Shown piece after piece: positions 1 to 53,992 of a DNA stretch of 64,000 nucleotides. Position 1 is the stretch's first letter. Each line of letters opens with the position of its first letter. The notes beneath the pieces are model-generated. The model was not told where the DNA came from and ran no database searches. It was given only the letters and a program-made list of their open reading frames with translations. Origin of the DNA: Verrucomicrobiota bacterium (GTDB lineage Bacteria; Verrucomicrobiota; Kiritimatiellia; JAKQHR01); contig JAKQHR010000092.1 in assembly GCA_029557905.1 (NCBI GenBank), positions 11,228 to 75,227 on the forward strand, read 5' to 3'. A program made the translations under genes and the position numbers.

Positions 1-65
1 CCGCCGTCCTGAGCCGCGTGTTACGCATTTTACAAACGGTCCCGAATCTGGTTTTCTATTCCTCC

Positions 66-2264
66 ATGAGGTTTCGCCGTGCCATCCTGATCCTGCCGGT
101 CGCCGTTCTGGGCGTCCTGATGGTTTCGTCGCGCGCAGAGCCGGAAGGGGCCCGTCCGAAAGTCGGCCTGGTGCTGAGCGGCGGCGGCGCCAAGGGGTTC
201 GCGCACATCGGTGTGCTGAAACAGCTTGAGGAGATGCATATTCCGATCGACTGCATTGCCGGAACCAGCATGGGCGCCATCATGGGCGGCCTGTATGCCT
301 CCGGCATGTCTCCGCGCGAAATGGAGCAGATTTTTACGGGCCTTGACTGGTGGGACATCCTGAAGGACCAGACACAGCGCAAGGATCTCGCGTTCCGCCG
401 GAAGAAGGACGACCAGCGCTATCTCGGGAATATCGAACTGGGCTTCAAGCACGGGAGGTTTCGTCTTCCGCGCGCGATGGCCGCCGGGCAGAAGCTGAAC
501 AATCTGCTGGTCACGCTGACGCGGGATGCGCGCAGGAATTTTGATGACCTGAACATTCCGTTCCGCGCGGTGGCCACGGATCTTTCCAGCGGCGACCGGA
601 TTGTGATGGGAGATGGAAGCCTTGCCCGCGCGATGCGGGCCAGCATGGCCATTCCGGGCGTGTTTTCGCCGGTCGAGATTGACGGCATGACCCTTGTGGA
701 CGGAGGCATTGCCGACAATATTCCCGTTGATCTCGCGCGTGAAATGGGCGCCGACATCATCATTGCGGTGGATCTGGGCGCCATGGACATCGCCTCCACC
801 CGCCGGTCGCAGGGCGACATTGCAGAGCTGCTCGCGCACACCTATCAGCTCATTCGCCGGCCGCAGCAGGAGGAGCAGATGCGCGACGCCGATATCGCGG
901 TGACGCCGGACACCTCCATGTTTTCCTCTTCCGATTTTCACAAGGCCCGCACGATCATCGGGACAGGCCGCCGCGCCGCGCGCGCGGTCGAGGAGCAGCT
1001 CCGGCCGCTGAGCATCAGCGAGGAGGAGTACGCGGAGTGGCTGCGCCGTCATCGCCGGGCGGCAGACGATACGCCCGTGATCCGCTCCATTGCCATCACC
1101 GGAGAAAAGCATGTGGACGAGCGGATCATTGCCCGCCAGATCAAGACGCGCCTGAACCGCCCCCTGGATTATGAACTGCTTGAAGACGACCTTTCCCGCA
1201 TTCACGGGCTCGGATATTTCGAATCGGCCATGTACGGGATTTCGGGCGAAGGCGGGCAGAGAGACATGACCATCGAAGTGTCGGAGAAGCCGTGGGGGCC
1301 CGGGTATGTCCGTTTCGGCCTGAAACTGGATGCGGACTCCGAGGAAAACAGCTCCTGGTCGGTGCTGGCGAATTACACGCGCCGGCCGCTGAACCGTCTG
1401 GGCGGCGAATTCCTGCTGGACCTGCAGGCGGGCGAGAAGCGCCGCATCATGGCGGAGCTTTACCAGCCGCTCGATTTCCGCGGAGCCTTTTTTCTTTCTC
1501 CGTCGGCGGAGTATTCCTCCTCGATGATGGATGTCTATGACGGGGATAGGAAGGCGGCGGAATATGACGTGGAGGAATTCTACGGCGCGCTGAATGCCGG
1601 CGTTCAGATCGGGAAATACGGTCAGATCCAGCTCGGCATGGTGGCCGGCCGCGCCCGCGCCACGGTGGATGTGGGCGACCCCGATTTGGAAAACATTGAT
1701 CAGGATGCCGGCGGCTGGACGGGACACATCGTGCTGGACCGCCGCGACAGCGATGTCTTTGCGCGAGAGGGCTTCCTGGTTGTGCTGCAGGGTTTTTCGG
1801 GCGACGAGATGCTGGGCCATGAGGATTCGTACGAGAAGGTGAGCTGGCTTTCGCAGCACTACATGACGCTCGGCCGGCACACGATGTTTGCGCATCTCGA
1901 ACTGGGCACCAGTCTGGAAAGCGAGCTGCCGCTGTATGACGAGTTTGCGCTCGGCGGCCTGTATTCGATGTCCGGCTATGCGGACGGCCAGCTGCGGGGA
2001 CAGTATCTGGGCGTCGGGCGGCTGGGATACATGTTCCGCATCAGCCAGCTTCCGCCAGACTTGGGACGGGGCGTTTATATCGGCGCCTGGGGCGAGGCCG
2101 GCAATGTCTGGCAGGACGAAGGCGACATTGACAGCGACAGCCTGCTGTACGGGGCGACGGTCGGCCTGGGCGCGGACACGTTTCTGGGACCCCTCTACTT
2201 TGCCTATGGCCGGTCTGAACACGGCCGCGACCGGTTTTACTTTTCACTGGGAAACAACTTTTGA
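66..2264 (+). CDS. Patatin-like phospholipase fused to a POTRA/Omp85-like C-terminal beta-barrel (PlpD-type, type Vd secretion architecture)
   Basis: Signal peptide MRFRRAILILPVAVLGVLMVSSRA; patatin motifs GGGAKG, GTSMG, DGG; C-terminal ~300 aa BamA-like surface-antigen domain ending with an aromatic-rich beta-strand tail (YFAYGRSEHGRDRFYFSLGNNF). Start taken at the internal ATG at 66 rather than the ORF-track start at 18. Confidence 0.75.
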   Translation: MRFRRAILILPVAVLGVLMVSSRAEPEGARPKVGLVLSGGGAKGFAHIGVLKQLEEMHIPIDCIAGTSMGAIMGGLYASGMSPREMEQIFTGLDWWDILKDQTQRKDLAFRRKKDDQRYLGNIELGFKHGRFRLPRAMAAGQKLNNLLVTLTRDARRNFDDLNIPFRAVATDLSSGDRIVMGDGSLARAMRASMAIPGVFSPVEIDGMTLVDGGIADNIPVDLAREMGADIIIAVDLGAMDIASTRRSQGDIAELLAHTYQLIRRPQQEEQMRDADIAVTPDTSMFSSSDFHKARTIIGTGRRAARAVEEQLRPLSISEEEYAEWLRRHRRAADDTPVIRSIAITGEKHVDERIIARQIKTRLNRPLDYELLEDDLSRIHGLGYFESAMYGISGEGGQRDMTIEVSEKPWGPGYVRFGLKLDADSEENSSWSVLANYTRRPLNRLGGEFLLDLQAGEKRRIMAELYQPLDFRGAFFLSPSAEYSSSMMDVYDGDRKAAEYDVEEFYGALNAGVQIGKYGQIQLGMVAGRARATVDVGDPDLENIDQDAGGWTGHIVLDRRDSDVFAREGFLVVLQGFSGDEMLGHEDSYEKVSWLSQHYMTLGRHTMFAHLELGTSLESELPLYDEFALGGLYSMSGYADGQLRGQYLGVGRLGYMFRISQLPPDLGRGVYIGAWGEAGNVWQDEGDIDSDSLLYGATVGLGADTFLGPLYFAYGRSEHGRDRFYFSLGNNF

Positions 2265-2323
2265 CCGGGCTTGAGTTTCCCCGTCTGCCGGTTTAGCATG
2301 TGCCCCTGTTATTCGGAGTAAAT

Positions 2324-2905
2324 ATGAAAGCATGGACACTTGCAGGATTAATGGCGCTGGTTCTGGCGGTCGGAGCGATCGCGCAGGAGCAGCCGGACAA
2401 CCCCGAACCGGAGGAGAACATCATGGTCGTGATCAAGACAAGCAAGGGCGACATCAAGGTCGAGCTGAACGAGAAGAAGGCGCCTGGGACGGTGAAGAAT
2501 TTCCTGGCCTATGTGGATGCCGGTCACTATGACGGGACCATCTTCCACCGCGTGATTGACGGCTTCATGATTCAGGGCGGGGGGTTCACAAAGGACATGC
2601 GCCAGAAACCGACGCGCGCGCCCATTGAAAACGAGGCCGCCAACGGGCTCGGCAACGAGCGCGGCACCATCGCCATGGCCCGCACATCCGATATCCACAG
2701 CGCAACCAGCCAGTTTTTCATCAATGTCGTGAACAACGCATTCCTGAATCACCGCGACAAATCCGCGCAGGGGTACGGCTACTGCGTATTCGGCCGGGTT
2801 GCCGAGGGCATGGATGTGGTGGATGCGATCAAGTCCGTCAGGACGGCCGCGCAGGACGTACCCGTGGAAACGGTTGAGATCATCAGCATCACGCGGGCCG
2901 AATAG
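2324..2905 (+). CDS. Peptidyl-prolyl cis-trans isomerase, cyclophilin type, secreted
   Basis: Signal peptide [21 protein letters not shown]; cyclophilin core [14 protein letters not shown]...GTIAMAR...QFFIN. Confidence 0.85.
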
Positions 2906-2917
2906 CGGCTTGCCTGA

Positions 2918-3796
2918 TTATTTCACGGTGCTGCGGGTGGTCGCGGCCAGCGCCTTCCAGAGTTTCTCGGGCGTGTCGGCATCCAGCAGCTTGTCGCGGT
3001 TTTCCTTTTTCTGGAAGCTTTCCGTGAGGCCGGCCAGCAGCTTCAGGTAAAAAGCGCTCGCGCCGGTTGGGATCAGCAGGAAAAAGATGATGCGGGTCAG
3101 GTTTTTCCCTCCCTGCTCGCACCGGATGCCTTTTTTGGAAGTCGCGAGGGCAAGGGTCAGTCCGCCGCCCTCGATGCCGCGGACGTGCGGGAAGGCGATG
3201 CCGTGCTCGACCGCCGTGCTGATGATGGACTCGCGGGCGATAGCGGCGTCGCGGAGTTTGCGGCCGTTGTCCACAAACTGTTCGGCCTCCAGCTTCATGC
3301 TCATTTCCTCGATCGCTTCATCCCGGGTGGCGGCCTCGATATGGGGCATCATCAGATTCAGCGCGGAGAACCGCGCGATGCCTATTTTGGGCGCCTCAAA
3401 GCGCTGGGTTCTCCGGGAGATGCGCTGGGGAAGGGTCTCGGGCGGCATGTACAGGATGCGCGCGCAGGTCGGGCAGGTGGACACCTGCGTTCCGGCGGCC
3501 ACCAGCTGGATCAGGCTGCTGGGCAGCTGCATGGCGCAGGCGGAACAGCGTCCTCCGGCGATCGGAACAATGGCCACGTGGCCTTTCTGCTGCAGCTTGG
3601 TGAATTTGCTGCTCAGGTCGGGCGGGAGTTTTTTGCGGAGCGCCTCAATGGACGCGTCGAGTTCAGTGAGCTGAGGATTGGAGACAACCGCCTCCTGCTG
3701 GGCGCGGGCCTCCGCCAGTTCCTGGAGTTGAACCAGAAGATTAATAACGGGTTTCATTTTACCTTTCTGCCGTGAATGCGATTTGCTGATCGTCAT
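2918..3796 (-). CDS. Fusion protein: N-terminal C4 zinc-ribbon coiled-coil domain (PF02591-like) + C-terminal PTS EIIA type-2 (PtsN/EIIA-Ntr-like) domain
   Basis: N-terminal coiled coil then GGRCSACAMQLP...CPTCARILY (two CxxC pairs). C-terminal part has the EIIA-2 signature around the phosphorylatable His (HGIAFPHVRG) and matches the adjacent PtsN paralog. True start may be the internal MKPV (3757). Confidence 0.6.
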   Translation of the reverse strand: MTISKSHSRQKGKMKPVINLLVQLQELAEARAQQEAVVSNPQLTELDASIEALRKKLPPDLSSKFTKLQQKGHVAIVPIAGGRCSACAMQLPSSLIQLVAAGTQVSTCPTCARILYMPPETLPQRISRRTQRFEAPKIGIARFSALNLMMPHIEAATRDEAIEEMSMKLEAEQFVDNGRKLRDAAIARESIISTAVEHGIAFPHVRGIEGGGLTLALATSKKGIRCEQGGKNLTRIIFFLLIPTGASAFYLKLLAGLTESFQKKENRDKLLDADTPEKLWKALAATTRSTVK

Positions 3797-3969
3797 GCAA
3801 GCGGCTTCATACCGGGACTTTTTCTACCAGCCCCTGCCCCGGGATGCAATGGATATCGAAAAAAAAATGAAGGCGGGTTTCAGTTTCTGCGGCAAACCGC
3901 GAATGCGGTATTGACCGCTCCGCCCGTTTGGAACATGATGTACGGTCTTTTTGATTGAGAGGCCCATTT

Positions 3970-4416
3970 ATGGATGTGAAAAAAGCCATTTCCACCGATA
4001 CGGTTTTTCAGGATCTGAAAAGCACGACAAAGACCGGTGTGATTGAAGAAATTCTTGATCTGCTGATTGCCGCGGGCAAGATCCGGAAAGAAAACCGTGC
4101 CGAGGTGCTGAATGCCCTTCTTGTGCGCGAGAACAAGATGTCCACCGGCATGCAGCACGGCATCGCCATTCCTCATGCCAAGACCGATGCAGTCGAGGAT
4201 CTGGTGGCCGCTCTGGCCATCAAGAAAGAGGGTATTGATTTTGACGCCCTCGACGGGAAGCCCAGCCATATTTTCATCATGACCATATCGCCCGTGAAGC
4301 GCACCGGGCCCCATATTCAGTTCCTCGCCGAGATCAGCCGCAAGCTGAACCAGCCGTCGATCCGGGAAAAACTGCTCCTGACCCAGACGAAGGACGAAAT
4401 CCTTCAGCTTCTGTGA
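3970..4416 (+). CDS. ptsN: PTS EIIA type-2 domain protein (nitrogen-regulatory EIIA-Ntr, PtsN-like)
   Basis: ~150 aa; MQHGIAIPHAKTDAVED active-site His context typical of PtsN/FruB IIA domains. Divergent from the ZnR-EIIA fusion. Confidence 0.75.
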   Translation: MDVKKAISTDTVFQDLKSTTKTGVIEEILDLLIAAGKIRKENRAEVLNALLVRENKMSTGMQHGIAIPHAKTDAVEDLVAALAIKKEGIDFDALDGKPSHIFIMTISPVKRTGPHIQFLAEISRKLNQPSIREKLLLTQTKDEILQLL

Positions 4417-4490
4417 GGCGCATGGAAACGATCCTTGCCATTCCCGGTCTGCTTCTCGCCTCGGTGGCCGAGCATGCCGTTGAACGCGAC

Positions 4491-6086
4491 ATGACCCATC
4501 TCATGACGCAGTACATTCTGCAGCTCGCTGTCATCATGCTGGCCGCCCGCATGGGCGGTTTTCTGGTGAAGCGCTACCTGAACGGGCCAGCGGCCCTTGG
4601 GGAACTGGCCGCGGGCATGGCGATCGGGCCCTGTGCGCTCGGCGCATGGCACATTCCGGGATGGGGGGCGCTGTTTCCTCCCGTGGCGGGCATATTCCCG
4701 GTGTCCACGGAGCTTTATGCCCTGGCCACCCTGGCTTCGATTGTCCTCCTGTTTCTTTCCGGACTGGAAACGGACCTGCGTGTGTTTCTGCACTATTCGG
4801 TTGCGGGAATCGTGGTCGGAACGGGCGGGCTGCTGGCTTCGTTCTTCCTTGGCGCCTGGTGCGCGCTGCTGTTCAACGTGGCCGATTCCCTGATGGATCC
4901 GTCCGCGCTTTTCATGGGAGCAATGGCCACCGCCACCTCGGTGAGTCTTCCCGCGCGAATCCTTTCCGAGAAAAGAAAAATGGCTTCCCCCGAAGGGGTC
5001 ACCATACTGGCGGCCGCCGTGTTTGACGATGTGCTCGGCATCATTGCGCTGGCGATCATTGTCGGCATGAGCAAGACCATGGCCAGCGGCGCCGTCATGG
5101 ACTGGGGAAAGATTTCCGTCGTGGCGGTCAAGAGCATCGGCTTCTGGCTTATTCTCATGGCGGCGGGGCTCCTGCTGGCCAAGCATATTGCGCGCGTTTT
5201 GAAACTGCTGCGCTCCCCGAACACCATCGCGGCCATCTGCTTTGGCCTCGCTCTGCTGCTGGCCGGTATTTCGGAAATGGCCGGTCTGGCAATGATCATT
5301 GGCGCCTATATCATGGGTCTTTCGCTTTCCGGAACGGACCTGGTCTATGAACTGCAGGAGCAGCTTCAAGGCGTCTATGACTTCATCATTCCCGTCTTTT
5401 TCTGCGTCATGGGCATGCTGGTGAATTTCGCCGCGATGAAGGGGCTGATATTCTTCGGGCTGGTCTACACGGTGATGTGCATTATCTCAAAGGTGGCCGG
5501 CTGCGGAATTCCCGCGCTGTTCATGAAGTTCACCCCCCGGGGCGCCTTCCGCGTCGGCGCGGGCATGGTGCCCCGCGCCGAGGTCACCCTGATTGTCGCC
5601 GGTATCGGCCTTTCCGCCGGCTATATCGGGCCGAACCTTTTCGGCGTGGCCGTCATGATGGCCATGCTCACCACCGTTGCGGCGCCGCCCATGATCCTCA
5701 GCGCATTCCGCGGCGGCTCCGGCGTGCGCGGTGAAGAAACCGCGCAGGAGCAGGAGCTTTCCACCGCCGTGCTCACGTTTCCCTCCGCCGACATGGCCGA
5801 GTTCATCTGCGCCCGCATCACGAGGGCTTTCCGCAACGAGGAATTTTTTGTCCACATGCTCGACAGCGATGTGCCGACCTATCAGATCCGCAAAGAGGAC
5901 ATGGCTTTTTCGATTGTGCAGGATGATGTCCACATCACCATCAGCATGCCGCTTCAGTATGAGCATGTCGGCCGGCTTATCGTGCTGGAGGAGGTGCTGG
6001 CCCTGAAGGATCTTCTGGATTCGGCCAAAGACATGCAGAGTCCGGATCAGATGGGAACCGATCTGGTTTCAAATCTTTTCGTATAA
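4491..6086 (+). CDS. Monovalent cation:proton antiporter (CPA2/Kef-type Na+/H+ or K+/H+ exchanger) with ~150 aa soluble C-terminal domain
   Basis: N-terminus QYILQLAVIMLAARMGGFLVKRYLNGPAALGELAAGMAIGP typical of the Kef/NhaP/CPA2 family; ~12 TM segments. Start uncertain (4413-4503). Confidence 0.75.
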   Translation: MTHLMTQYILQLAVIMLAARMGGFLVKRYLNGPAALGELAAGMAIGPCALGAWHIPGWGALFPPVAGIFPVSTELYALATLASIVLLFLSGLETDLRVFLHYSVAGIVVGTGGLLASFFLGAWCALLFNVADSLMDPSALFMGAMATATSVSLPARILSEKRKMASPEGVTILAAAVFDDVLGIIALAIIVGMSKTMASGAVMDWGKISVVAVKSIGFWLILMAAGLLLAKHIARVLKLLRSPNTIAAICFGLALLLAGISEMAGLAMIIGAYIMGLSLSGTDLVYELQEQLQGVYDFIIPVFFCVMGMLVNFAAMKGLIFFGLVYTVMCIISKVAGCGIPALFMKFTPRGAFRVGAGMVPRAEVTLIVAGIGLSAGYIGPNLFGVAVMMAMLTTVAAPPMILSAFRGGSGVRGEETAQEQELSTAVLTFPSADMAEFICARITRAFRNEEFFVHMLDSDVPTYQIRKEDMAFSIVQDDVHITISMPLQYEHVGRLIVLEEVLALKDLLDSAKDMQSPDQMGTDLVSNLFV

Positions 6087-6119
6087 ATACCAGCGGCTGG
6101 CCGCGCGGAGGAAACAGCC

Positions 6120-6704
6120 ATGAGCAAAGGAAGAAAGCACATATCCATACCCGTGGACATGACCACCCCGGTCCCGGTCTGGTGTGTCGGAACCTATGAC
6201 GAGCAGGACCGTCCCAATGTGATGACCGCCAGCTGGGCGGGCATTGTCTGCAGCCGTCCGCCGTGCGTGGCCGTGGCGCTGCGTGATGCCACGCATTCCT
6301 GCCGCGGACTTCAGGCCCGGAAGGCCTTCACCGTCAGCGTCCCGTCTGAAACCCAGTATGTGCAGGCCGACTACTTCGGGATGGCGGGCGGGAAAACCAA
6401 GGACAAGTTTGCCGCCAGCCGAACCACCGCGGTCCGGTCCGACAAGGTGGATGCGCCCTATGTCGCCGAATTTCCGCTCATACTGGAATGCGAACTGAAG
6501 GAATCCGTGGTGCTGGGCCTTCACACGCTGTACGTTGGCGAGATCATGGGCGTGAAGGCGCATCCGGACATCCTGAACGGCGACACAGTGGATGCCTCGA
6601 AGCTGGCGCCCTTCTTTTTTTCGCCGTCCGAGCGGGCCTATTACAGAATAGGCGAACGCCTGTCGCCCGCCTTTGCGCCGGGCCGCGCGCTCATGGACCG
6701 GTGA
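6120..6704 (+). CDS. Flavin reductase-like (flavoredoxin) FMN-binding split-barrel protein
   Basis: VWCVGTYDEQDRPNVMTASWAGIVCSRPPCVAVALRDATHSCRGLQARKAFTVSVPS matches the flavin reductase-like domain. Confidence 0.7.
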   Translation: MSKGRKHISIPVDMTTPVPVWCVGTYDEQDRPNVMTASWAGIVCSRPPCVAVALRDATHSCRGLQARKAFTVSVPSETQYVQADYFGMAGGKTKDKFAASRTTAVRSDKVDAPYVAEFPLILECELKESVVLGLHTLYVGEIMGVKAHPDILNGDTVDASKLAPFFFSPSERAYYRIGERLSPAFAPGRALMDR

Positions 6705-6710
6705 GTCCGA

Positions 6711-6800
6711 AAAAGTTCCAATGACTGGAAAATCCCGCCGAAAAAGTTCCAATCATTGGAACTTTTTTCCCGAAAACTTCCAGTCATTGGAACTTTTCAG
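6711..6800. repeat. Array of three tandem AT-rich palindromic elements (AAAAGTTCCAATSATTGGAACTTTT) in a convergent intergenic spacer
   Basis: Copies at 6711-6731 (ttccaatgactggaa), 6741-6768 (gttccaatcattggaac) and 6773-6800 (ttccagtcattggaa, the reverse complement of copy 1). Each is an A-tract/hairpin/T-tract unit. The same motif triplet recurs at 39024-39113. Confidence 0.85.
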
Positions 6801-7978
6801 GCACTGCGCACGCGGGGCTTTGTGGTGATTTCAAGCGCGATCACGCACAGGTCGTCTTCCAGGGGCGTGCCGTCCGCGAAGAGCATGACCTCCTCCAGCA
6901 GGCCGTCCACCAGCTCCTTGACGTTTTTGTACATCAGCCGGCGGAGCACGGACTCCATGCGCTCGATGCCGAATTCCTCGCGCTGGCGGTTGAAGGCCTC
7001 GTAGACGCCGTCGGTGAAGAAGATGAACACATCATCCGGCACCAGCCGGCAGTGTCCGCCGGAGAACGCCTCGTCCGGAATGACGCCGAGCGCGGCGCCG
7101 CGCGGCGGCGGCACTTCAAGCCGCGAGATGCGGCCCACGCTCCGGTGCAGGTGGAAGGGACTGGGATGTCCGGCGGAAGAATAGGTGGCGATGCGGGAAG
7201 TGGTGTCGGCCACAAAATAGAAGGCCGAGGCAAACAGCGGATTGGGGATGCTTTTGAGCAGATCGCAGAACTGGCGGTTGATTTCAGAAAGGAAATGCGG
7301 GGCATGCCGCGCATAGGACAGCAGGTCCACCAGCAGGGTGCGCAGGATGGATGTGATCAGCGCGCTGCGCGTTCCATGGCCCATCACGTCGGCAATGAAC
7401 ACGCCGCCGGCATCGCGGCCGGCCTGGAGCAGATTGTAGAAGTCGCCGCCGAGCGCCGACGCCGGGCGGTAGCAGTGATGGAACTCCAGCCGCAGGCGTC
7501 CGGGAATGTGCACGTCGGGAATGGCGGGATAGGGCCGCTCCAGCATGGCCTCCTGAAAATCCTTGGCCAGTTCCAGGTCGCGCCGCATGTCGGAGGTGCG
7601 GGCGGCCACTTCGTCGGCATATTCCTTCTTGAAATCATCCAGCCAGGCATCCAGCTTATTCTGAACGGGCGAAGGCGGCAGGGGTGCGGCGCCCGGCGGG
7701 TCGGGTTCCGCCGCGCGGCCCAGCGCGTTGCGCATGATCCACTCGCCGGCGTCCAGCATTTCGCCGTAGGGGTTCAGCAGCCGGTGTTTCACGCGGGTGA
7801 ACACCGCCATGAAAATTCCCGCGGCAGCGGCCAGCGCCACGGCTCCGGCAAACAGGACCTGCCAAAGGTTCAGGGAGGCGATGCAGGCCGTTATGGCGGT
7901 TGCGCAAACGGCCAGCAGGAAAAGCAGTCCTCCCAGCAGAATGGCCATCCATTTGTGCAATCTTGTCTGCGGCTTCAT
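6797..7978 (-). CDS. PP2C-family (SpoIIE/RsbU-type) protein serine/threonine phosphatase with N-terminal double-TM anchor
   Basis: Two N-terminal TM helices, then GGDFYNLLQAGRDAGGVFIADVMGHGTRSALITSIL...ATYSSAGHPSPF, characteristic of the PP2C SpoIIE/RsbU catalytic domain. Confidence 0.8.
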   Translation of the reverse strand: MKPQTRLHKWMAILLGGLLFLLAVCATAITACIASLNLWQVLFAGAVALAAAAGIFMAVFTRVKHRLLNPYGEMLDAGEWIMRNALGRAAEPDPPGAAPLPPSPVQNKLDAWLDDFKKEYADEVAARTSDMRRDLELAKDFQEAMLERPYPAIPDVHIPGRLRLEFHHCYRPASALGGDFYNLLQAGRDAGGVFIADVMGHGTRSALITSILRTLLVDLLSYARHAPHFLSEINRQFCDLLKSIPNPLFASAFYFVADTTSRIATYSSAGHPSPFHLHRSVGRISRLEVPPPRGAALGVIPDEAFSGGHCRLVPDDVFIFFTDGVYEAFNRQREEFGIERMESVLRRLMYKNVKELVDGLLEEVMLFADGTPLEDDLCVIALEITTKPRVRSA

Positions 7979-9123: not shown

Positions 9124-9711
9124 TCAGCCGGTCAGCGCCCGGCGCACAATCTCCTCGACGGTGGTCGCCTCTTCGGCCGGCACGCGGCCAACCATTTTGG
9201 CCGCGTCCATTTGTTTGTAGCCGAGCGCGATCAGCGCCATCATCGCGTCGCGCGCGTTCCGGCTGACGGGTTTTCCCGTTTCTCCGGCAAGCGCCTCGGC
9301 GGCTTCGCCCTCGCCGAATTTGTCGGAGAGTTCCACCACCAGCCGCTCGGCGGTCTTTTTCCCGACCCCCGAGATGGAGCTGAGCCGTTTCACGTCGCGC
9401 TCCAGCACCGCGCGCTTGAAGTCGCGCACGCTCAGGCTGCTGAGTGCGCTCAGGGCCAGCTTGGGCCCGACTCCGTTGACGGCCAGCAGCCGCACAAACA
9501 GTTCGCGTTCGGCCTCCGTCACGAAGCCGAAAAGTATGTGGGCGTCTTCGCGAACGTGATGATAGGTCAGGATTCTGCAGGTCTGGCCGGGCGCGGGCAG
9601 GGGGTCACAGCTGCTGAGGGGAATCAGCACCTCGTAGCCGACGCCGTGCACATCCAGCACAATGCGGGTGGGATTTTTAACGACCAGTTTTCCTTCCAGA
9701 AAGGCAATCAT
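9124..9711 (-). CDS. ruvA: Holliday junction DNA helicase RuvA
   Basis: [31 protein letters not shown] classic RuvA N-terminus; HhH motifs; 195 aa. Confidence 0.95.
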
Positions 9712-10622
9712 TTTTTCTCCCTCCGCACGGGTTCAAGAACCTGTCCGCGCCGGACAAAACCTTCCAGAATCCGCGCGTGAGCAGAGGCCCTGTTCACCTG
9801 TGTCACGCGGATGCGCCCCGTTTGGCGTCCCGCGATGGTCTCGATGACGCGTCCGCTGACCGGATCAGTGATCTCGCGGCTTTCCTCGCGGACGATGAAC
9901 TCATCATATTTCCTGACCCGCGCGTTTTCGCCTCCGTTGATGATGACGGTGTCTGTTCCGGCCTCGGCGATGCGCGGCTGCCAGTATTCCGCCGGGATGC
10001 CCCGGAGAATTCCCCTCACGCCCCGGCGGAGGGCCTGTTCCGCAGCCCTGCCCAGCGGGGAATCTGAAAAGGCCTTCCCGCCGAAAGTCATGTTCTTGTA
10101 GCTGATGTCTGCCTGGCGCCGGGGGGTCGAGGCGGCGCCTTTGGCCCGGAAAGACGACAGGACCGAGCCGGACTTTGAATCCGACACAACCAGTTCAATT
10201 TCCACTTGTGCCCGGCCTGGCCGTGCCCGCGAGACGGCAAACCAGCCGCTTGAGTCTCCGGCAACGGAAAATTCAGTCACGGAGCCGGAAATGACATACT
10301 GTGCGTAGCTGTCCGAGGCTCCGTCGTTCAGCAGCAGATTTTTCCCCTGATCGAGGATTTTTTCAACGCCGGCCCGGACCTCCGGAACATGCACTTCCAC
10401 GCGGTCTGTTTTGCGCAGCGCATCCGCCGCGAGTCGCGCCATATCCTCGCCCGGTTTCCATTTCCCGCGGAATCCCGAATGATCTTCGAAGGTCTCTATG
10501 GAAACGGCCGGACGGCTGTCCAGTTTGACCGGCCATCGCGCGCGCGAAGTGGCGCAGCCGGACGGGAGAAGAAATGCCGTTGAAGCGCAAATCAGGAAAA
10601 AGTTCTGGAGGCCGCGCGGCAT
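9708..10622 (-). CDS. CsgG/HfaB-family outer-membrane lipoprotein with C-terminal extra domain
   Basis: Lipobox LLPSGC; segments VSIETFEDHSGF...VISGSVTEFSV...VEIELVVSDSKSGSVLSS align by eye to the CsgG fold (COG1462). Stop overlaps the ruvA start, implying co-transcription. Start chosen at MPRGLQ (10622); the ORF could extend to 10664. Confidence 0.55.
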   Translation of the reverse strand: MPRGLQNFFLICASTAFLLPSGCATSRARWPVKLDSRPAVSIETFEDHSGFRGKWKPGEDMARLAADALRKTDRVEVHVPEVRAGVEKILDQGKNLLLNDGASDSYAQYVISGSVTEFSVAGDSSGWFAVSRARPGRAQVEIELVVSDSKSGSVLSSFRAKGAASTPRRQADISYKNMTFGGKAFSDSPLGRAAEQALRRGVRGILRGIPAEYWQPRIAEAGTDTVIINGGENARVRKYDEFIVREESREITDPVSGRVIETIAGRQTGRIRVTQVNRASAHARILEGFVRRGQVLEPVRREKK

Positions 10623-10623
10623 G

Positions 10624-10977
10624 TCATTTGAGGGCATACTGCTCAACCGCCTCAAGGACATCATCAGGGTTCAGGGGTTTTTGCAGGAACTTCTTCACGT
10701 TCGGAAACTGTTTGAGCTCCTCTTCGTTATAGTCCGGGAATCCCGCCATCACGATCACCGGGACGGCGATATGTTCGGCGGCCAGCAGCATGAGAAGCTC
10801 GGCGCCGTTGATGTTGGGCATTCGCATGTCCAGCAGCATGCCCCTGCACTTCGGCTCCCTGGCGAGGTGATAGGCGGACTGTCCGTCGTGTGCGACACAG
10901 ACCTCATATCCGGCATCCTTGAGGAGGCGGGTCAGCAGATGCGTCAGCACCTTGTCATCATCGCATACCACGATCAT
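10624..10977 (-). CDS. Stand-alone response-regulator receiver (CheY-like) protein
   Basis: MIVVCDDDKVLTHLLTRLLKDAGYEVCVAHDGQSAYHLAREPKCRGMLLDMRMPNINGAELL: acidic pocket DDD, phospho-acceptor D in LLDMRMP, conserved K near the C-terminus; no output domain. Confidence 0.85.
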   Translation of the reverse strand: MIVVCDDDKVLTHLLTRLLKDAGYEVCVAHDGQSAYHLAREPKCRGMLLDMRMPNINGAELLMLLAAEHIAVPVIVMAGFPDYNEEELKQFPNVKKFLQKPLNPDDVLEAVEQYALK

Positions 10978-24179: not shown

Positions 24180-24248
24180 CGCTCACGGCTTCCGGCGCGG
24201 CTGCACCAAGCCTTGACCTCGGACCCGCTTGAGGACATTCTAGGAGGC

Positions 24249-24995
24249 ATGAATCTGGAACAGGTGCTCAAAAAAGTGGCCGCCGGCGAAATCGCCGTCG
24301 CCGAAGCCCGCAGGCAGATTGAGGGGTCGCTTGAACAGTCGCTCGGCTTTGCCCGGATAGACATGGACCGCCCCCGCCGGTGCGGGCACCCGGAAACCAT
24401 CTACTGTCCCGGGAAAACCGTTGAGCAGATTGTGGAAATCGCCGGAACGCTTCACGGCGCCGGCCAGCATGTGATGGCCACGCGGGCCACGGAAGATGTG
24501 TACAGGGCCGTTGCGGCGGCGCACCCGGCTGCCCGGTGGCATGCGGACGCGCGGGCCGTCACGCTGGATGCCGGGCCGCTTCCCGAACCCCGGGGACTGA
24601 TTGCCGTGGTCACGGCCGGAACGGCTGACCTGCCCGTCGCCGAAGAGGCCTGCCTGACCGCCGAGCGCATGGGCGCGCGCATTGACCGCATTTATGATGT
24701 CGGCGTGGCCGGCCTTCACCGTCTCGGCGCCCGGCTTGAGCGTCTGCGGAAGGCGAATGTTGTGGTTGTCGTGGCCGGAATGGAGGGAGCCCTGCCGTCG
24801 GTGGTGGGCGGGCTGATTGACCGGCCGGTGATCGCCGTGCCCACGAGTGTCGGCTACAGCCTGAACCTGCACGGACTCTCCGCGCTGCTGGCCATGCTCA
24901 ACTCGTGCGTGCCGGGCATCACGGTGGTGAATGTGGATAACGGTTTCGGCGCCGGTGTTGCGGCGGCCATGATCAACCGCGCGGGAGCTTTATGA
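24249..24995 (+). CDS. larB: Nickel-pincer cofactor biosynthesis protein LarB (PurE-like; pyridinium-3,5-biscarboxylic acid mononucleotide synthase)
   Basis: PurE/AIR-carboxylase-like fold: IAVVTAGTADLPVAEEA...VVVVVAGMEGALPSVVGGLIDRPVIAVPTSVGY...GITVVNVDNGFGAG; N-terminal extension typical of LarB. Immediately followed by larC. Confidence 0.75.
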   Translation: MNLEQVLKKVAAGEIAVAEARRQIEGSLEQSLGFARIDMDRPRRCGHPETIYCPGKTVEQIVEIAGTLHGAGQHVMATRATEDVYRAVAAAHPAARWHADARAVTLDAGPLPEPRGLIAVVTAGTADLPVAEEACLTAERMGARIDRIYDVGVAGLHRLGARLERLRKANVVVVVAGMEGALPSVVGGLIDRPVIAVPTSVGYSLNLHGLSALLAMLNSCVPGITVVNVDNGFGAGVAAAMINRAGAL

Positions 24996-26179
24996 AAATT
25001 CTGCGTTTTGACAGCATTGGCGGCGCGAGCGGCGACATGATTCTTGGAGCGCTGCTGGGGCTCGGAGTGGATGCCGCATGGGTGGAGAAGCAGCTGGCGG
25101 ATTTTCTGCCGGACCCGTTTCATATTGAAACAAAGCCGCACGAAAGCTGCGGGCTCAACGGGGTCCAGACGCGCGTGCACATCGGCGGCCATCATGCGCA
25201 CGAGCATCACCGCCATGAGCACGATCACGAGCACCGTTCATTTCGTGTCATCCGCGATATGATATCAAACAGCCGCCTCGACCCGAAGGTGAAGGAGCTT
25301 TCCATCCGGGTTTTCCAGCGCCTGGCCGAGGCCGAGGGCGCGGTGCACCGGAAGCCGGCGGAAGATGTTCATTTTCATGAAGTCGGGGCGACTGATTCCA
25401 TTGTGGATATCGTGGGCTCCTGTCTCGCCTGTGTGAAACTCGGGATCGATGCGGTCTCTGTGGATCGCCTCCCCCTGAGTTCGGGCTCCGTGACCTGCCA
25501 GCACGGGGTCTATCCGCTGCCAGCGCCCGCAACCCTTGAGCTGCTCAAGGGTTTTTCCGTGGAGCAGACGGAAGAGTCCGTTGAGATGGTCACGCCCACC
25601 GGCGCGGCGCTTCTCATGAGCTGGCGAAGCGAACAGGCGCCTGCGCGGGGACGCATTCTTCAGTCGGTCAACAGTTTCGGGCACCATCATCTGCATCACC
25701 GGCCCAACGTGCTGCGCGCCACGATGATGGAATCAGAGGCCCCGGCCGCCTCCGGTCCGGAATGCCTCGTGATGGAAACCAATCTGGATGACATGACTCC
25801 GGAGCTGATCGGCACACTGATGGACGCCCTGCTGCACGCCGGCGCACTGGACGTGTTCACAACACCGGTGCAGATGAAGAAGAACAGGCCGGGCATGCTG
25901 CTGACCGTCCTGTGCGAGGCGTCGCGCGCGGATGTGCTGAAGAACATCATTTTCACCGAGTCCACGACCTTCGGCATCCGTCAGTATGCGGTGGAACGCA
26001 CCGTGCTCGCGCGCAGGACCGTGGAGGTCGAAACGGAATACGGCCGTATTCGCGTTAAGATCGGCACATGGAAGGGGAGCGACGTTACCCGGTCGCCGGA
26101 GATGGATGACTGCGCCGCCGCCGCCCGCGCGCACAATGTGCCCGTGCGCAAGGTGTATGAGGCTGCGTCCAGGCTATGA
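24992..26179 (+). CDS. larC: Nickel insertion protein LarC (DUF111/UPF0272)
   Basis: MKILRFDSIGGASGDMILGALLGLGVD N-terminus; His-rich tract GGHHAHEHHRHEHDHEHRS; FHEVGATDSIVDIVG motif; 395 aa. Confidence 0.85.
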   Translation: MKILRFDSIGGASGDMILGALLGLGVDAAWVEKQLADFLPDPFHIETKPHESCGLNGVQTRVHIGGHHAHEHHRHEHDHEHRSFRVIRDMISNSRLDPKVKELSIRVFQRLAEAEGAVHRKPAEDVHFHEVGATDSIVDIVGSCLACVKLGIDAVSVDRLPLSSGSVTCQHGVYPLPAPATLELLKGFSVEQTEESVEMVTPTGAALLMSWRSEQAPARGRILQSVNSFGHHHLHHRPNVLRATMMESEAPAASGPECLVMETNLDDMTPELIGTLMDALLHAGALDVFTTPVQMKKNRPGMLLTVLCEASRADVLKNIIFTESTTFGIRQYAVERTVLARRTVEVETEYGRIRVKIGTWKGSDVTRSPEMDDCAAAARAHNVPVRKVYEAASRL

Positions 26180-32974: not shown

Positions 32975-35362
32975 ATGGCCCTGAAAGCAGATAAAGTCAG
33001 TTCGATGCTGTGCAGTCACTGCGGAGCCGCCATGGATGTGTCTTCACAGGACCCGTTTTCCACGGCGCTGTGCCCGGCTTGCGGCCGTTCGCAGATAGTG
33101 CCGATGCAGTTCGGCTCGATCCTTCTTCTTGAACCGCTTGGGGCCGGAGGCATGGGGGCCATCTACCGCGCGCTGGATCCCATGCTGGACCGCTATCTGG
33201 CCATCAAGGTGATGCAGACCGCCGGCGCGGCAGATGATCAGTTCGTGGAGAATTTCTTCCGTGAAGCCCGCGCCGCCGCCGCGCTCAACCATCCCCACAT
33301 CGTTCAGATTTATTCCTGCGGCCGCGAGTACGGCCAGCCCTACATCGCCATGGAACTGCTGGAGGGAGGGACCCTCGATGAGATGATCCATTCTTCCGGC
33401 ACCGTGGACGAGCTGGATGTTCTGCAAATCGGCATATCTGTTTCCGAGGGTCTTCGGGCTGCAGGCGAAATCGGGCTGACGCATGGAGACATCAAGCCCG
33501 CCAATATTCTTTTCGACAGCCATCACAAGGCCAAGATCGCCGATTTCGGACTGGCCCGCTTCATGCAGCAGGGCTCCTCCGCTGAAATATGGGGAACTCC
33601 TTTCTACATTGCTCCCGAGAAACTGCGGAAGCAGAAGGAGGATCAGCGTTCCGATATCTACAGCCTCGGCGCCACGCTTTTTCACGCACTGACCGGGCAG
33701 CCCCCGTTTGACGGCAAGACGGCCACGGATGTGGCGGTCGCCCGTCTGGACCAGCCGCCGCCGGATGTCCGCGACAGAAATCCGGGAATATCTCCCGAAG
33801 TGGCGGCGGTCATTGCGCGCATGCTCAAGGAGAATCCGCACGAGCGATATCCCACCTATGCTTCGCTGATTGCCGACATGAAGAGTGTGCTGGCGGTGCT
33901 TCGGCAGAAACGCGGCAGCCGGCCGATGCGTCCTAAAATGAGGAAATCGCACGCGGGCGCTTTTGTGGCCGCGGCCCTTTTTGCGCTTATTGCCGCGGGG
34001 ATATGGATGAGCCAGCGCGAAGGTTCGGGGCCTCCCGAGGGTCCGCTGTCCGGCCCGTCTCGTCCGGAGGAACCCGCCGTGCCGGAGATGCGGGGAAGTA
34101 AGCCTTTTGAGGGCGTTCGCGGAACCGCCATGGAACGGATACTGAACCTGTTCGCCGCCGGGAATGTCATGGCGGCATCAGAAAGTCTGCAGGCGCTGTA
34201 TGAAAAAATTCCCCCGGACAGTCCGGATCGCTCGTGGATATGCCTGTTTCAGGCGCTGATGCTCTGGTATGACGGAAACGGCGGGAGCGGGGATGAACTG
34301 CTTGACCGGGCTCTGGCCGGGTTCGCCGGGAGCGATGCCTCGGCCGGCGCCCTGATCGCCGCATACATGAAGGGGAATATGGATGAGGCGGCGGTTGAAG
34401 CCTCTGCCGGCGAGCAACCGCAGTGGGTGGGCGATTTCACCGGATTTGTCGCGGGTATGAATCATGCCCGGCAGGGACGAAAGGATGAAGCGGACGTGCG
34501 CTGGCGCACTTATCTTCAGACCACGAATGACAAGCCGGCCTGGGTTTATGTCCTGAAGCCTCTGGCGCAGAAATTCACGGAAAGTCACGCCCGCTGGGAA
34601 CGTCTGAATGCGGAAGTGACCGCTCTGCTCGAAGCCCGCAAACCCGGAGAGGCCCGGGTTCTTCTGCGCGATTTCAAGCTGACCGCCGGTCCGGTCTTTG
34701 CCGCTGAAACGGATCAGCTCTTCGAGAAGGTTCAGGCGCTGGAAGCCTCGCTGACCGAGGCCGAGGCGGCCCGCCTCGCGGAACAGCAGGCTGCGGCCGC
34801 CGCCAGAAAAAAAGCAAAAGCCGAGTCCGAGGTCGCAAAGGTTCGGAAAGCGGTGGAATCCGGCCGGAGACACTATCCCTCCAGGGATTTCGATAGGGCT
34901 CTAGCCGCAATTGAAAAGCTTCGGCCCGCGATGACTACGGAAGAGGGATGGGTGGAATATCAGCTGGCGCGCGAAAAAGTGTCCCGTCTTGACGCAATGC
35001 ACCGCTATCTCCAGAACGCATTGCGCACGCGTCCCTGCAGAATCAGTGTGTTCGGGAAAAACACGCGCGTGGCGGGAGCAACCTCGCGTGGTGTGCGCGT
35101 GGCGATTGGCACTCAGGCCGATATGGTGCGGGAGTGGCAGGAGATCACGGCGGCCCAGTATGTCGGCCTGATTCGCCAGTATCTTGATGCTGAACAGAAA
35201 ACCGTGCGCGAGAAAGCGGATGATCATCTCAGCCTGGCCGTGTTCGCTTCGGAAACAGACGGCGGACAGCTGGCCGCGCAGCTTGCGCGAAAAGCCGTGG
35301 CGCTGGATCCGGCCGTCAGGGATCTCGGCCTGCGCCTTCTGCCTGATCTGGACTGGGAATAG
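32975..35362 (+). CDS. Hanks-type Ser/Thr protein kinase with N-terminal zinc ribbon, single TM helix and ~450 aa helical extracytoplasmic C-terminal region
   Basis: CSHCGAAMDV...CPACGRSQIVP zinc ribbon; kinase subdomains LGAGGMGAIYRA, AIKV, HGDIKPANILF, DFG, GTPFYIAPE; TM AGAFVAAALFALIAAGIWM; C-terminal alpha-helical region with a coiled coil. Confidence 0.88.
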   Translation: MALKADKVSSMLCSHCGAAMDVSSQDPFSTALCPACGRSQIVPMQFGSILLLEPLGAGGMGAIYRALDPMLDRYLAIKVMQTAGAADDQFVENFFREARAAAALNHPHIVQIYSCGREYGQPYIAMELLEGGTLDEMIHSSGTVDELDVLQIGISVSEGLRAAGEIGLTHGDIKPANILFDSHHKAKIADFGLARFMQQGSSAEIWGTPFYIAPEKLRKQKEDQRSDIYSLGATLFHALTGQPPFDGKTATDVAVARLDQPPPDVRDRNPGISPEVAAVIARMLKENPHERYPTYASLIADMKSVLAVLRQKRGSRPMRPKMRKSHAGAFVAAALFALIAAGIWMSQREGSGPPEGPLSGPSRPEEPAVPEMRGSKPFEGVRGTAMERILNLFAAGNVMAASESLQALYEKIPPDSPDRSWICLFQALMLWYDGNGGSGDELLDRALAGFAGSDASAGALIAAYMKGNMDEAAVEASAGEQPQWVGDFTGFVAGMNHARQGRKDEADVRWRTYLQTTNDKPAWVYVLKPLAQKFTESHARWERLNAEVTALLEARKPGEARVLLRDFKLTAGPVFAAETDQLFEKVQALEASLTEAEAARLAEQQAAAAARKKAKAESEVAKVRKAVESGRRHYPSRDFDRALAAIEKLRPAMTTEEGWVEYQLAREKVSRLDAMHRYLQNALRTRPCRISVFGKNTRVAGATSRGVRVAIGTQADMVREWQEITAAQYVGLIRQYLDAEQKTVREKADDHLSLAVFASETDGGQLAAQLARKAVALDPAVRDLGLRLLPDLDWE

Positions 35363-53395: not shown

Positions 53396-53992
53396 ATGAA
53401 AGAACAGGACTGGGACATCAAGGCAAGGTCAGAGGCGTGCTCAAAATGCGAGCATGAGTATGAAGATCAGGAGCCCTTCTATTCGAAACTGACCTTTGAA
53501 GAGGACGGTTATCACCGCTCTGATTTCTGCGAGAAATGCTGGACGGATGAAGTGCAGGCCAGCGCCCTCAGCCGCTGGCGCACGATCTATCGCTCCCCCG
53601 CGCCGCCGCCGGAACCGGCGGTGAAAAAGGAAACCGCCGAATCTCTGCTGCGTGAACTGATCGAGACTGACCGCATGGAGCAGGCCAATACGATATATAT
53701 TCTGGCGGTGATGCTTGAGCGCAAGCGCATTCTGGTCGAGCGCGATGTGCAGGAGCGCGAGGACGGCACGCTCATACGCGTTTACGAGCACAAGAAGACC
53801 AACGAAGTCTTCATGATTCCTGATCCGCGTCTCAAACTGGCCGAACTTGAAACGGTGCAGGCGGAAGTGATTGCCATGCTCGATGGAACCGCCCGTGCCG
53901 CCCAGCAGGAGCTTTCAGCGCCGGTTGGCGGCGAACCCGCGCCGGAAGCTGCACCTGAGAACTCCCCGCCGGAAGCTCCGCCGGCTTCCTGA
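53396..53992 (+). CDS. Hypothetical protein with N-terminal Cys4 zinc-ribbon and acidic/Pro-rich C-terminus
   Basis: CSKCEH...x22...CEKCW; no recognised catalytic motif; start adjacent to the TPR gene stop. Confidence 0.5.
   Translation: MKEQDWDIKARSEACSKCEHEYEDQEPFYSKLTFEEDGYHRSDFCEKCWTDEVQASALSRWRTIYRSPAPPPEPAVKKETAESLLRELIETDRMEQANTIYILAVMLERKRILVERDVQEREDGTLIRVYEHKKTNEVFMIPDPRLKLAELETVQAEVIAMLDGTARAAQQELSAPVGGEPAPEAAPENSPPEAPPAS

Follow-up and report, generated by a model that had tools for sequence, protein, structure and literature searches.

In the window analysed here, a stretch of 64,000 nucleotides from a Verrucomicrobiota bacterium of the Kiritimatiellia lineage (assembly GCA_029557905.1, contig JAKQHR010000092.1, positions 11,228 to 75,227 of the forward strand), a minus-strand gene encodes a protein that joins the zinc-ribbon head of the FlgZ/CdsZ family to an EIIA domain of the phosphoenolpyruvate (PEP)-dependent phosphotransferase system (PTS), and its divergent neighbor is a stand-alone EIIA gene that overlaps the gene of a cation:proton antiporter. 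The fusion protein is in all likelihood a regulatory EIIA that accepts a phosphoryl group on a histidine, rather than a sugar-transport subunit, and its zinc-ribbon head is probably an output or targeting module. For the composite picture, in which a regulatory EIIA uses a zinc-ribbon docking output and a separate EIIA-antiporter pair is encoded next to it, we see about an even chance. All positions given below are those of the window.

Domain structure of the fusion protein

2918..3757, minus strand: coding sequence (CDS) of the zinc-ribbon/EIIA fusion, 279 aa plus stop, from the open reading frame (ORF) list, Pfam and homologue lengths
2918..3796, minus strand: longer, 292-aa reading of the fusion ORF with an alternative start at 3796
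3449..3757, minus strand: N-terminal module, residues 1-103, three short helices and then the C4 zinc ribbon
3452..3550, minus strand: match to Zn_ribbon_9 (PF02591), residues 70-102, C71-x2-C74-x20-C95-x2-C98
3386..3448, minus strand: inter-domain linker, residues 104-124, where the predicted local distance difference test score (pLDDT) dips to 72-83 and alignment columns are more variable
2921..3385, minus strand: EIIA domain (mannitol/fructose/Ntr-type), residues 125-279, PF00359 match of 81.9 bits, structural matches to EIIA-Ntr
3185..3187, minus strand: codon of His191, the predicted phospho-acceptor in AFPHVR, read from the sequence and aligned with H67 of N. meningitidis IIA-Ntr

A first-pass annotation of this DNA had described a zinc-ribbon coiled-coil protein joined to an EIIA type-2 domain, and the peptides it quoted (GGRCSACAMQLP...CPTCARILY, GIAFPHVRG and GIAIPHAKT) are all found in the ORFs. 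The union of the two domains is borne out by a HMMER scan with the Pfam hidden Markov models, as both score above the Pfam thresholds (Zn_ribbon_9, PF02591: 40.1 bits, gathering cut-off 29.1, E 3.9e-10; PTS_EIIA_2, PF00359: cut-off 27, E 5.7e-23). The coiled coil is shorter than this description suggests: only about 60 residues of helices precede the ribbon, and the Pfam scan found no match of the fusion protein to CT398_CC (PF24481) at E <=0.01. As judged from the sequence, the ATG at 3757 is the most likely start of translation (279 aa), rather than 3796 (292 aa): many homologues comprise 277-280 aa, the gene is called with 279 aa on public contigs, and 5 nt ahead of this ATG lies a GAAAGG ribosome-binding site. 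A conserved KKG that precedes the Met in homologues coincides with the AAGAAAGGA ribosome-binding site.

The AlphaFold2 model of the fusion protein, calculated with a 121-sequence alignment, reached a pLDDT of 88 and a predicted template modelling score (pTM) of 0.84, which points to a single compact unit made up of both domains. In the N-terminal module, helices were assigned to residues 2-24, 31-42, 46-59 and 80-88, and strands to residues 63-67 and 101-103. The model has the EIIA-Mtl/Ntr fold: in the Foldseek comparison, which was made for the fusion model only, the top PDB matches were the EIIA-Ntr structures 2a0j (E 1.3e-9, template modelling score (TM) 0.84), 1a6j, 3urr and 4gqx, with TM values of 0.78-0.84 and ranks above EIIA-Mtl, and 1a3a was recovered as well. 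The protein stays below the cut-offs of the PtsN equivalog models (TIGR01419, 39.2 versus 138.7 bits; NF008145, 19.1 versus 221 bits), and its best NCBIfam match is a fruA-type IIA model with 55 bits versus a cut-off of 103.5.

The zinc-ribbon head

The Pfam family Zn_ribbon_9 was formerly known as DUF164 or zf-RING_7. In the sequences of the forward architecture, i.e. with the zinc ribbon preceding the EIIA domain, all four Cys of the C71-x2-C74-x20-C95-x2-C98 ribbon are invariant (121/121), and the spacing satisfies the CxxC-x(18-26)-CxxC motif defined for the family (PMC5947703). The N-terminal module can be aligned with the C-terminal ~100 residues of HP0958, CT398 and MSMEG_4306 (PDB 3na7, 4ilo and 5y05; query residues 17-130 of the 292-aa form), Foldseek superimposes it on CT398 (4ilo_A) with a root-mean-square deviation of 1.6 Å over 76 columns at 28% identity, and the ribbon is 38% identical over 45 residues to a canonical protein from the same lineage. 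The CdsZ equivalog model NF047363 gives 21.1 bits at a cut-off of 275. The N-terminus of the fusion is only the zinc-ribbon head of the FlgZ/CdsZ family, and the long hairpin is absent.

FlgZ (HP0958), CdsZ (CT398) and MSMEG_4306 thus resemble the fusion in the ribbon head, the connecting helices and the intact CxxC-x20-CxxC, but they possess an antiparallel coiled-coil hairpin of ~130 Å that the fusion does not have, their ribbon is C-terminal whereas that of the fusion is N-terminal, and only the fusion contains an added EIIA domain. The hairpin has been reported to bind RpoN in the case of CT398, and it is predicted to reach the sigma-54 core-binding domain. HP0958 shields RpoN from turnover and needs its CxxC motifs for this function, and outside Actinobacteria the PF02591 proteins co-occur with RpoN (PMC3372290). 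In CT398, the coiled coil binds RpoN, both domains bind FliH/CdsL, and a complex with RNA polymerase (RNAP) is formed (PMC5947703); the same paper cites the binding of flaA mRNA by the HP0958 ribbon. According to the predictions of an AlphaFold3 preprint, ML1638 and CT398 attach to the beta-prime shelf/jaw of RNAP by their ribbon and reach the sigma region with the tip of their coiled coil (bioRxiv 10.64898/2026.07.15.738315). The fusion retains this proposed RNAP anchor and swaps the sigma-contacting arm for the EIIA domain.

Canonical proteins with CT398_CC and Zn_ribbon_9 (230-257 aa, carrying PF24481) are present in metagenome-assembled genomes (MAGs) of Kiritimatiellae and Verrucomicrobia, and in two genomes the canonical gene is found on the same contig as the fusion gene (L085, and a 597,768-bp contig that contains L059 and L091). 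As the canonical genes coexist with the fusion, the latter is a paralogue, neither an orthologue nor a replacement.

Active-site residues of the fused EIIA domain

In EIIA domains of this type, the phospho-acceptor His and its partner Arg are H65/R49 in IIA-Mtl and H73/R57 in E. coli IIA-Ntr, R69 of N. meningitidis IIA-Ntr has been placed near the active site, and a second His (H111 in IIA-Mtl; H113/H120 in IIA-Ntr, H120 in E. coli) has been proposed for the transfer to EIIB in sugar systems (PMC1201152). In the alignment with N. meningitidis IIA-Ntr, H191, R175 and R193 of the fusion correspond to H67, R51 and R69, and Y237 occupies the position of the second His. The first-pass annotation was right about the phosphorylatable His context, as H191 and R175 are invariant in the 121 forward homologues, and so is R193, the Arg at position +2. 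At the second-His position, 120 of these sequences have a Tyr, here Tyr237, and one has a Phe. The fused EIIA can presumably be phosphorylated, as far as its residues tell, and a domain without the residue tied to onward transfer fits a terminal, regulatory acceptor. With Tyr237 in place of the second His, the fused EIIA is most likely a terminal phospho-acceptor.

Distribution and the two domain orders

The exact fusion protein was found in 34 blocks of a public contig collection, and the four places shown have identical neighbors. The nearest named relatives are from Kiritimatiellia MAGs, with 85% identity on one Kiritimatiellia contig. The 120 best protein matches listed all contain PF02591 and PF00359 and have 277-313 aa, except for two of 252-253 aa. 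Conservation of the fusion in related genomes is extensive: a scan with one genome per GTDB species detected relatives in at least 594 genomes, and the best 80 of these are nearly all MAGs labelled Kiritimatiellia, "Verrucomicrobiota", Lentisphaerota or Victivallales, with three odd labels (Mollicutes, Gemmatimonadales and "bacterium"). A HMMER search of 50%-identity cluster representatives gave ~35 full-length clusters of the forward architecture, down to 28% identity, one of which is labelled Thermodesulfobacteriota. The forward fusion thus constitutes a large and old family.

In databases, these proteins are named 'PTS sugar transporter subunit IIA', and our literature search found no paper describing a zinc-ribbon/EIIA fusion. 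In the 2011 survey, the PF02591 domain was always C-terminal and other domains occurred in just 3 of 349 proteins (PMC3372290). The initial impression of an undescribed architecture is therefore correct with respect to the literature, including that survey, but the architecture is common in sequence databases: both domains and both families are known, the combination is already listed under a generic name, and it is the fusion itself that is undescribed.

The opposite order, with the EIIA domain preceding the zinc ribbon, occurs in other lineages and was found in 20 of the 159 representative and cluster-member sequences that were classified (242-295 aa, one of them from Candidatus Schekmanbacteria). 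Relatives of these reverse-order proteins occur in at least 468 metagenome stretches, and 73 of the 80 loci kept have the reverse architecture. In the 20 proteins, the phospho-acceptor His and its Arg are invariant, the +2 Arg is present in 16, and the second-His position is occupied by Tyr (14), Phe (4), His (1) or Leu (1). The His, the Arg at +2 and the Tyr/Phe at the second-His position are thus features common to both orders.

A profile of the forward N-terminal module and one of canonical CT398-like proteins give equal scores for the reverse-order zinc modules, and the reverse-order EIIA domains score higher on the profile of the stand-alone EIIA than on that of the forward-fusion EIIA. 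As the reverse-order domains are no closer to the forward ones than to stand-alone or canonical ones, these comparisons suggest independent fusions, and two such events are the simplest reading of the sequences. We also considered a single origin of both orders by permutation, which is not supported, since the reverse zinc and EIIA domains are not specifically nearer to the forward ones. Two independent fusions would be strong comparative evidence that the zinc-ribbon head and the EIIA domain work together.

The stand-alone EIIA and its antiporter

3970..4416, plus strand: CDS of the stand-alone PtsN-like EIIA, 148 aa, PF00359 match of 113.6 bits
4174..4176, plus strand: codon of His69, the predicted phospho-acceptor (AIPHAK), from the alignment to PtsN structures
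4413..6086, plus strand: CDS of a CPA2-like cation:proton antiporter of 557 aa, GTG start, C-terminal cytoplasmic domain of ~120 aa

The plus-strand EIIA gene begins at the ATG at 3970 and not at the TTG at 3955. Its product matches PF00359 with an E of 9.9e-33 (cut-off 27 bits), and its best PDB sequence matches are PtsN proteins (2a0j, E 1.1e-17). H69, R53, E54, K71 at position +2 and H115 as second His are invariant in 17 orthologues, and this residue pattern is, at the level of the alignment, that of E. coli PtsN. The first-pass annotation had called the protein a canonical PtsN. It is indeed a stand-alone, PtsN-like EIIA, but it stays under the PtsN equivalog thresholds (TIGR01419, 79 versus 138.7 bits; NF008145, 52.2 versus 221 bits) and scores more on the fruA-type IIA model (94.6 bits, also under the cut-off) than on TIGR01419. 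As the gene is part of an antiporter operon, the protein is better read as an ion-transporter regulator.

This operon was absent from the earlier description. The stop codon of the EIIA gene (4414..4416) overlaps the GTG start (4413) of the antiporter gene in a GTGA overlap. The antiporter matches PF00999 with 162.9 bits and the CPA2 model TIGR00932 with 119.3 bits versus a cut-off of 238.3, and KefB/KefC models match weakly. The EIIA-CPA2 pair recurs in seven other loci (L008, L011, L024, L029, L048, L078 and L083), and a natural fusion exists in the 885-aa protein P0188, in which a CPA2 part is followed by two EIIA domains. The CPA2 part of P0188 is 29% identical to the antiporter of the window over residues 31-547, including the C-terminal cytoplasmic domain, and its EIIA domains are 42% and 38% identical to the stand-alone EIIA. 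Further proteins of 847-906 aa have two EIIA matches each (P0193, P0200, P0201, P0203, P0205, P0208, P0221, P0225 and P0234); only P0188 was Pfam-scanned, and for the rest a similar build is assumed, given their length and the places of their matches. The P0188-like proteins look like antiporters with built-in PTS-type regulatory domains.

In E. coli, the K+/H+ antiporter YcgO is inhibited by unphosphorylated PtsN, which binds to its cytoplasmic region (PMC11808508). On the basis of the translational coupling, the P0188 fusion and this PtsN-YcgO precedent, the stand-alone EIIA and the CPA2 antiporter most likely form, by analogy, a regulator-transporter pair. The analogy has its differences, as YcgO is a CPA1 antiporter with RCK and CorC domains, whereas the antiporter here is CPA2-like with an unrecognised C-terminal domain. 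The cytoplasmic domain of eukaryotic Band 3/SLC4 and the P0188 family offer a structural parallel, since there, too, an ion exchanger comes together with a module of the EIIA fold; in P0188 the EIIA is fused, whereas here it is a separate, translationally coupled polypeptide. The stand-alone EIIA weakly matches Band_3_cyto (PF07565), and the Foldseek comparison of the fusion model also recovers SLC4 cytoplasmic domains.

PtsN itself (E. coli PtsN; N. meningitidis NMB0736; PDB 1a6j and 2a0j) provides the nearest solved structures for both EIIA proteins of the window and shares the conserved phospho-acceptor His and Arg with them, and a terminal regulatory role is expected. A further resemblance is that PtsN gates YcgO (K+/H+) and TrkA, as the gene of the stand-alone EIIA is coupled to that of a CPA2 antiporter. 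The fusion differs from PtsN by its extra ~105-residue zinc-ribbon module and by the Tyr at the second His. Neither EIIA gene is part of an operon resembling the rpoN-hpf-ptsN-rapZ-npr type of cluster of PtsN within the window.

Gene neighborhoods and PTS components

A Pfam scan of ~55 of the larger ORFs of the window detected no EIIB, EIIC, EI, HPr, HprK or RpoN, and neither an RpoN box nor an EI or HPr active-site motif turned up when every ORF of 50 aa or more was scanned for motifs. The window is otherwise ordinary chromosome, with ruvAB, glmS, murA, mfd, ftsK, glgB, larBC and three tRNAs. The observation that no EIIB/EIIC sugar permease is nearby thus holds for the window and agrees with a regulatory PTS; none is seen in the annotated related loci either. 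Transporter-less regulatory PTSs have been reported for Chlamydiales and Planctomycetes (PMC2405797; PMC13104625). The regulatory phosphorelay that had been proposed on these grounds is compatible with the permease-free window, but a single relay of both EIIA proteins is not supported, and the pairing of the two genes occurs in only a part of the loci: a divergent stand-alone EIIA gene lies directly upstream of the fusion gene in 16 of the 75 loci with enough flank, at a spacing of 131-441 bp, in several clades including that of the window.

These counts come from a set of 83 forward-fusion loci, in which the context depends on the clade; the counts are not phylogenetically independent. The partner of the stand-alone EIIA varies. 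In loci where the CPA2 gene is absent, it is followed by a SulP/STAS anion transporter gene (L068:7523-9208, minus strand), or it adjoins the convergent gene of a ClC channel that carries CBS and TrkA_C domains (L064:7205-9301, plus strand) or an ORF with a TrkA_C domain (L034:8879-9295, plus strand). The stand-alone EIIA seems to associate with varied ion transporters.

Other contexts concern the fusion gene. In one clade, trkA-trkH are found 0.2-1.3 kb downstream in convergent orientation (12/16 loci), and a tRNA-Met (CAT) lies ~70 nt upstream on the same strand (L010:9855-9928, L039:252-327, L055:9854-9931 and L070:1809-1882), which may share transcription with the fusion gene. In another subclade, 16 of 26 loci have an rpoN gene on the strand of the fusion gene, 2.7-9.5 kb upstream of it; among the 14 loci whose flank spans the full 10 kb, 13 have it. 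The genes follow each other in the order rpoN, class IV aminotransferase, in some cases an RND efflux operon, alkD-like, fusion and aroK; rpoN was found here by a regular expression for the RpoN box, with Pfam confirmation (AID, CBD and DBD) in one locus only. This echoes the known rpoN-ptsN linkage, but unrelated genes intervene. A Ser/Thr kinase gene is located convergently downstream of the fusion in many loci, and in the annotated L005 and L006 a PPK-CHAD-PPX-kinase cluster follows beyond; as this cluster is convergent and clade-limited, a link to polyphosphate was set aside. Proteobacterial PtsN regulates TrkA, KdpD and YcgO (PMC11808508; PMC13104625), and neighbors such as rpoN, TrkA, cation/proton antiporters and polyphosphate genes are recognised themes of proteobacterial PtsN, which is suggestive only.

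With respect to general PTS components, phmmer searches with approximate HPr/NPr queries, together with active-site regular expressions, identified one HPr gene (L079) and no EI-like ORF in the 83 forward loci, and neither of them in the 80 reverse-order loci. The HPr-family gene of L079 is 1.4 kb away from the fusion gene (L079:7830-8519, minus strand; PF00381, 73 bits) and encodes a 229-aa protein in which HPr is fused to a glycogen-binding CBM48/AMPK1_CBM domain. Beside it, in this 'PVC group' MAG, L079:4041-7722 encodes a PAS histidine kinase together with kaiC-kaiB-kaiB; it is unusual to find a glycogen-tethered HPr next to a cluster that resembles the Kai clock.

A gene for a cyclophilin-type peptidyl-prolyl isomerase (window 2300..2905, plus strand) is convergent with the fusion gene at a distance of 12 bp. 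A cyclophilin gene also abuts the fusion in L008, and one directly precedes the reverse-order gene of the Schekmanbacteria contig (L088:7375-7980). We do not regard this adjacency as a functional clue, as the gene is 2.3-8.5 kb away in 10 other forward loci, and synteny or coincidence is the probable explanation.

The divergent promoter region

3758..3969, no strand assigned: divergent intergenic region, 212 bp
3821..3849, minus strand: putative sigma-70-type promoter of the fusion gene, tentative, TTGCAT-17-TAGAAA
3911..3939, plus strand: sigma-70-type promoter of the stand-alone EIIA gene, TTGACC-17-CATGAT, a scan match

The assignment of 3821..3849 as promoter of the fusion gene is tentative and derives from sequence comparison: boxes and spacing are kept in the 85%-identical orthologue of L008 (TTGCAT-17-TAAAAA), and a TTTACA-N17-TAAAAC-like pattern is found upstream of the fusion gene in another clade. 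A TTGACC-N17/18-cAtaAT-like box precedes the orthologous EIIA gene by 36-60 nt in 16 of 17 loci. A sigma-54 promoter (TGGCAC-N5-TTGC) was sought in 3758..3969 and discarded, as there is none and the window has fewer matches than shuffled sequence. An Rfam search of 2500..6500 gave only a chance snoRNA match (E 0.85), and none within 3758..3969.

Proposed function and alternative explanations

We propose that the fusion is a soluble two-domain regulator and the terminal phospho-acceptor of a transporter-less PTS, in which phosphoryl groups would pass from EI to HPr and then to His191. Arg175 and Arg193 would flank His191, and the terminal position in the relay would parallel that of PtsN. The head, as a docking surface for proteins or nucleic acids like that of the FlgZ/CdsZ family, would tether the EIIA domain to a macromolecular partner, and the phospho-state of His191, reporting the PEP or nutrient state, would alter the action of the protein at this partner. 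The leading candidate for the partner is RNAP or the sigma-54 machinery, an assignment that is itself doubtful, and there the fusion may compete with the canonical CdsZ-like protein of the same genome. The stand-alone EIIA would most likely gate the CPA2 antiporter by its own phosphorylation state, by analogy with the gating of YcgO by unphosphorylated PtsN in E. coli.

In its most specific form, this proposal would make the fusion a phospho-switched RNAP accessory factor that uses the CdsZ/FlgZ docking site and in which the EIIA domain replaces the sigma-54-contacting coiled coil. We consider this clearly unlikely as a complete statement, although its consequences would be considerable: the phospho-state of the PTS would directly tune the sigma-54 (or general) holoenzyme by competition or allostery, and the long-noted, unexplained rpoN-ptsN association would obtain a physical bridge. 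Several observations weigh against the proposal as a whole. No EI or HPr gene was found within the 64-kb window. The fusion is without precisely that coiled coil to which RpoN binding has been ascribed in reports on CT398, and the docking of the ribbon on RNAP is a structure prediction in a preprint, made for other members of the family. A search of the sequence ahead of the fusion gene in 82 related loci gave no sigma-54 promoter. The contexts with rpoN, with trkAH and with a divergent EIIA are each confined to certain clades, rpoN and trkAH are not in the operon of the fusion, and these neighborhoods may be inherited synteny. In the reverse-order loci, rpoN is near in only 3 of ~29 with enough flank, and the commonest co-directional neighbor there, in 17 loci, is a small cyclic nucleotide monophosphate (cNMP)-binding protein of 140-152 aa, encoded directly downstream on the same strand (L089:3497-3919, L090:8854-9279, L123:8850-9308 and 14 more), which probably forms an operon with the reverse-order gene and ties this EIIA/zinc-ribbon protein to cyclic-nucleotide signalling. 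Finally, the high pTM of the model could mean that the N-terminal module is simply packed against the EIIA domain and has a regulatory or structural role within the protein itself.

What alternatives exist for a docking function of the head? The last point leads to the possibility that the fusion is the PtsN-type regulator of K+ or ion homeostasis of this lineage, with the EIIA domain binding TrkA- or CPA2-like targets and the zinc module serving oligomerisation, stability or intramolecular control. The packing suggested by the pTM of 0.84 would agree with this, as would the trkA-trkH genes 0.2-1.3 kb from the fusion in 12 of 16 loci of one clade, the divergent EIIA genes near CPA2 (seven loci and the window), SulP/STAS (L068) or ClC (L064) genes, and the regulation of TrkA, KdpD and YcgO by PtsN in proteobacteria (PMC11808508; PMC13104625). 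We nevertheless regard it as rather unlikely, because trkAH is convergent with the fusion, not co-transcribed and restricted to one clade, because the gene that is coupled to a transporter is that of the stand-alone EIIA and not that of the fusion, and because the recruitment of a zinc head from an RNAP/sigma-54-related family, apparently in both orders, would be left unexplained.

A phosphorylation-controlled RNA-binding regulator is also conceivable, in which the ribbon binds mRNAs and the phospho-state of the EIIA domain switches the binding. The HP0958 ribbon binds flaA mRNA (as cited in PMC5947703), COG1579 is named 'predicted nucleic acid-binding protein' (PMC8469502), and the JGI annotation of the homologue P0093 adds 'predicted RNA-bind...'. 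As RNA binding is documented in one distant family member only, and as no RNA target, conserved leader or Rfam element was found near the gene, we judge this quite improbable. A role of the fusion as a plain sugar-PTS EIIA, as its database name says, working with an EIIBC permease from another part of the genome, is hardly credible: its membership in PF00359 and the sub-threshold fruA-type IIA match (55 bits versus 103.5) would be in line with such a role, but no EIIB or EIIC is seen in the window or the annotated related loci, the second His is replaced by Tyr in 120 of 121 homologues, the nearest structures are EIIA-Ntr proteins, and a fused zinc-ribbon module has no sugar-transport role.

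If the regulatory EIIA with its zinc-ribbon docking output is correctly described, the consequences reach beyond this locus. The ptsN-rpoN linkage and the tie of EIIA-Ntr to transcription have been open questions for decades, and the fusion of EIIA with a zinc head in both orders offers a testable hypothesis for a direct link. The fusion would be the main recognisable PTS-type regulator in the large, mostly uncultured lineage of Kiritimatiellia and Lentisphaerota, where it is at present wrongly named a subunit of sugar transport. With the EIIA-CPA2 operon and the CPA2-EIIA-EIIA fusions, the PtsN-YcgO principle would extend beyond proteobacteria and beyond CPA1 antiporters, and in this lineage both transcription and ion balance may be connected to signals of the nutrient state.

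Further observations in the window and in related sequences

Another regulatory EIIA architecture was seen among the related sequences, namely 307-aa proteins with PTS_EIIA_2 and CBS (PF00571) domains (P0331 and P0333-P0335), one of which is labelled Candidatus Hydrogenedentes. N-termini that resemble CxxC zinc ribbons also occur elsewhere in the window, at 53396..53992, 57134..57847 and 32975..35362 (all plus strand); two of these proteins have no significant Pfam family (one a weak match to Zn_ribbon_Brz), and one is a Ser/Thr kinase of 795 aa. Zinc ribbons at the N-terminus thus seem to recur in this genome.

A few kb from the EIIA genes, the window encodes a membrane-anchored SpoIIE/PP2C phosphatase (6797..7978, minus strand) and a receiver-only response regulator whose gene overlaps that of a CsgG/FlgT-like lipoprotein (9708..10977, minus strand); the phosphatase and the response-regulator/lipoprotein genes are conserved together with the EIIA genes on public contigs. 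On the other side of the locus, at 18..2264 (plus strand), a patatin-like phospholipase is fused to POTRA and an Omp85 beta-barrel, which looks like an outer-membrane lipase autotransporter of the PlpD type. The segment 11215..15335 contains several ORFs without a Pfam match, with a third-position GC of 0.47-0.66 versus ~0.75 elsewhere, and may be a horizontally acquired or fast-evolving segment. At 24213..26179 (plus strand), a larB-like gene (AIR carboxylase family) stands beside a larC-like gene (nickel insertion protein, 435 bits), and this pair suggests the synthesis of a nickel-pincer cofactor.

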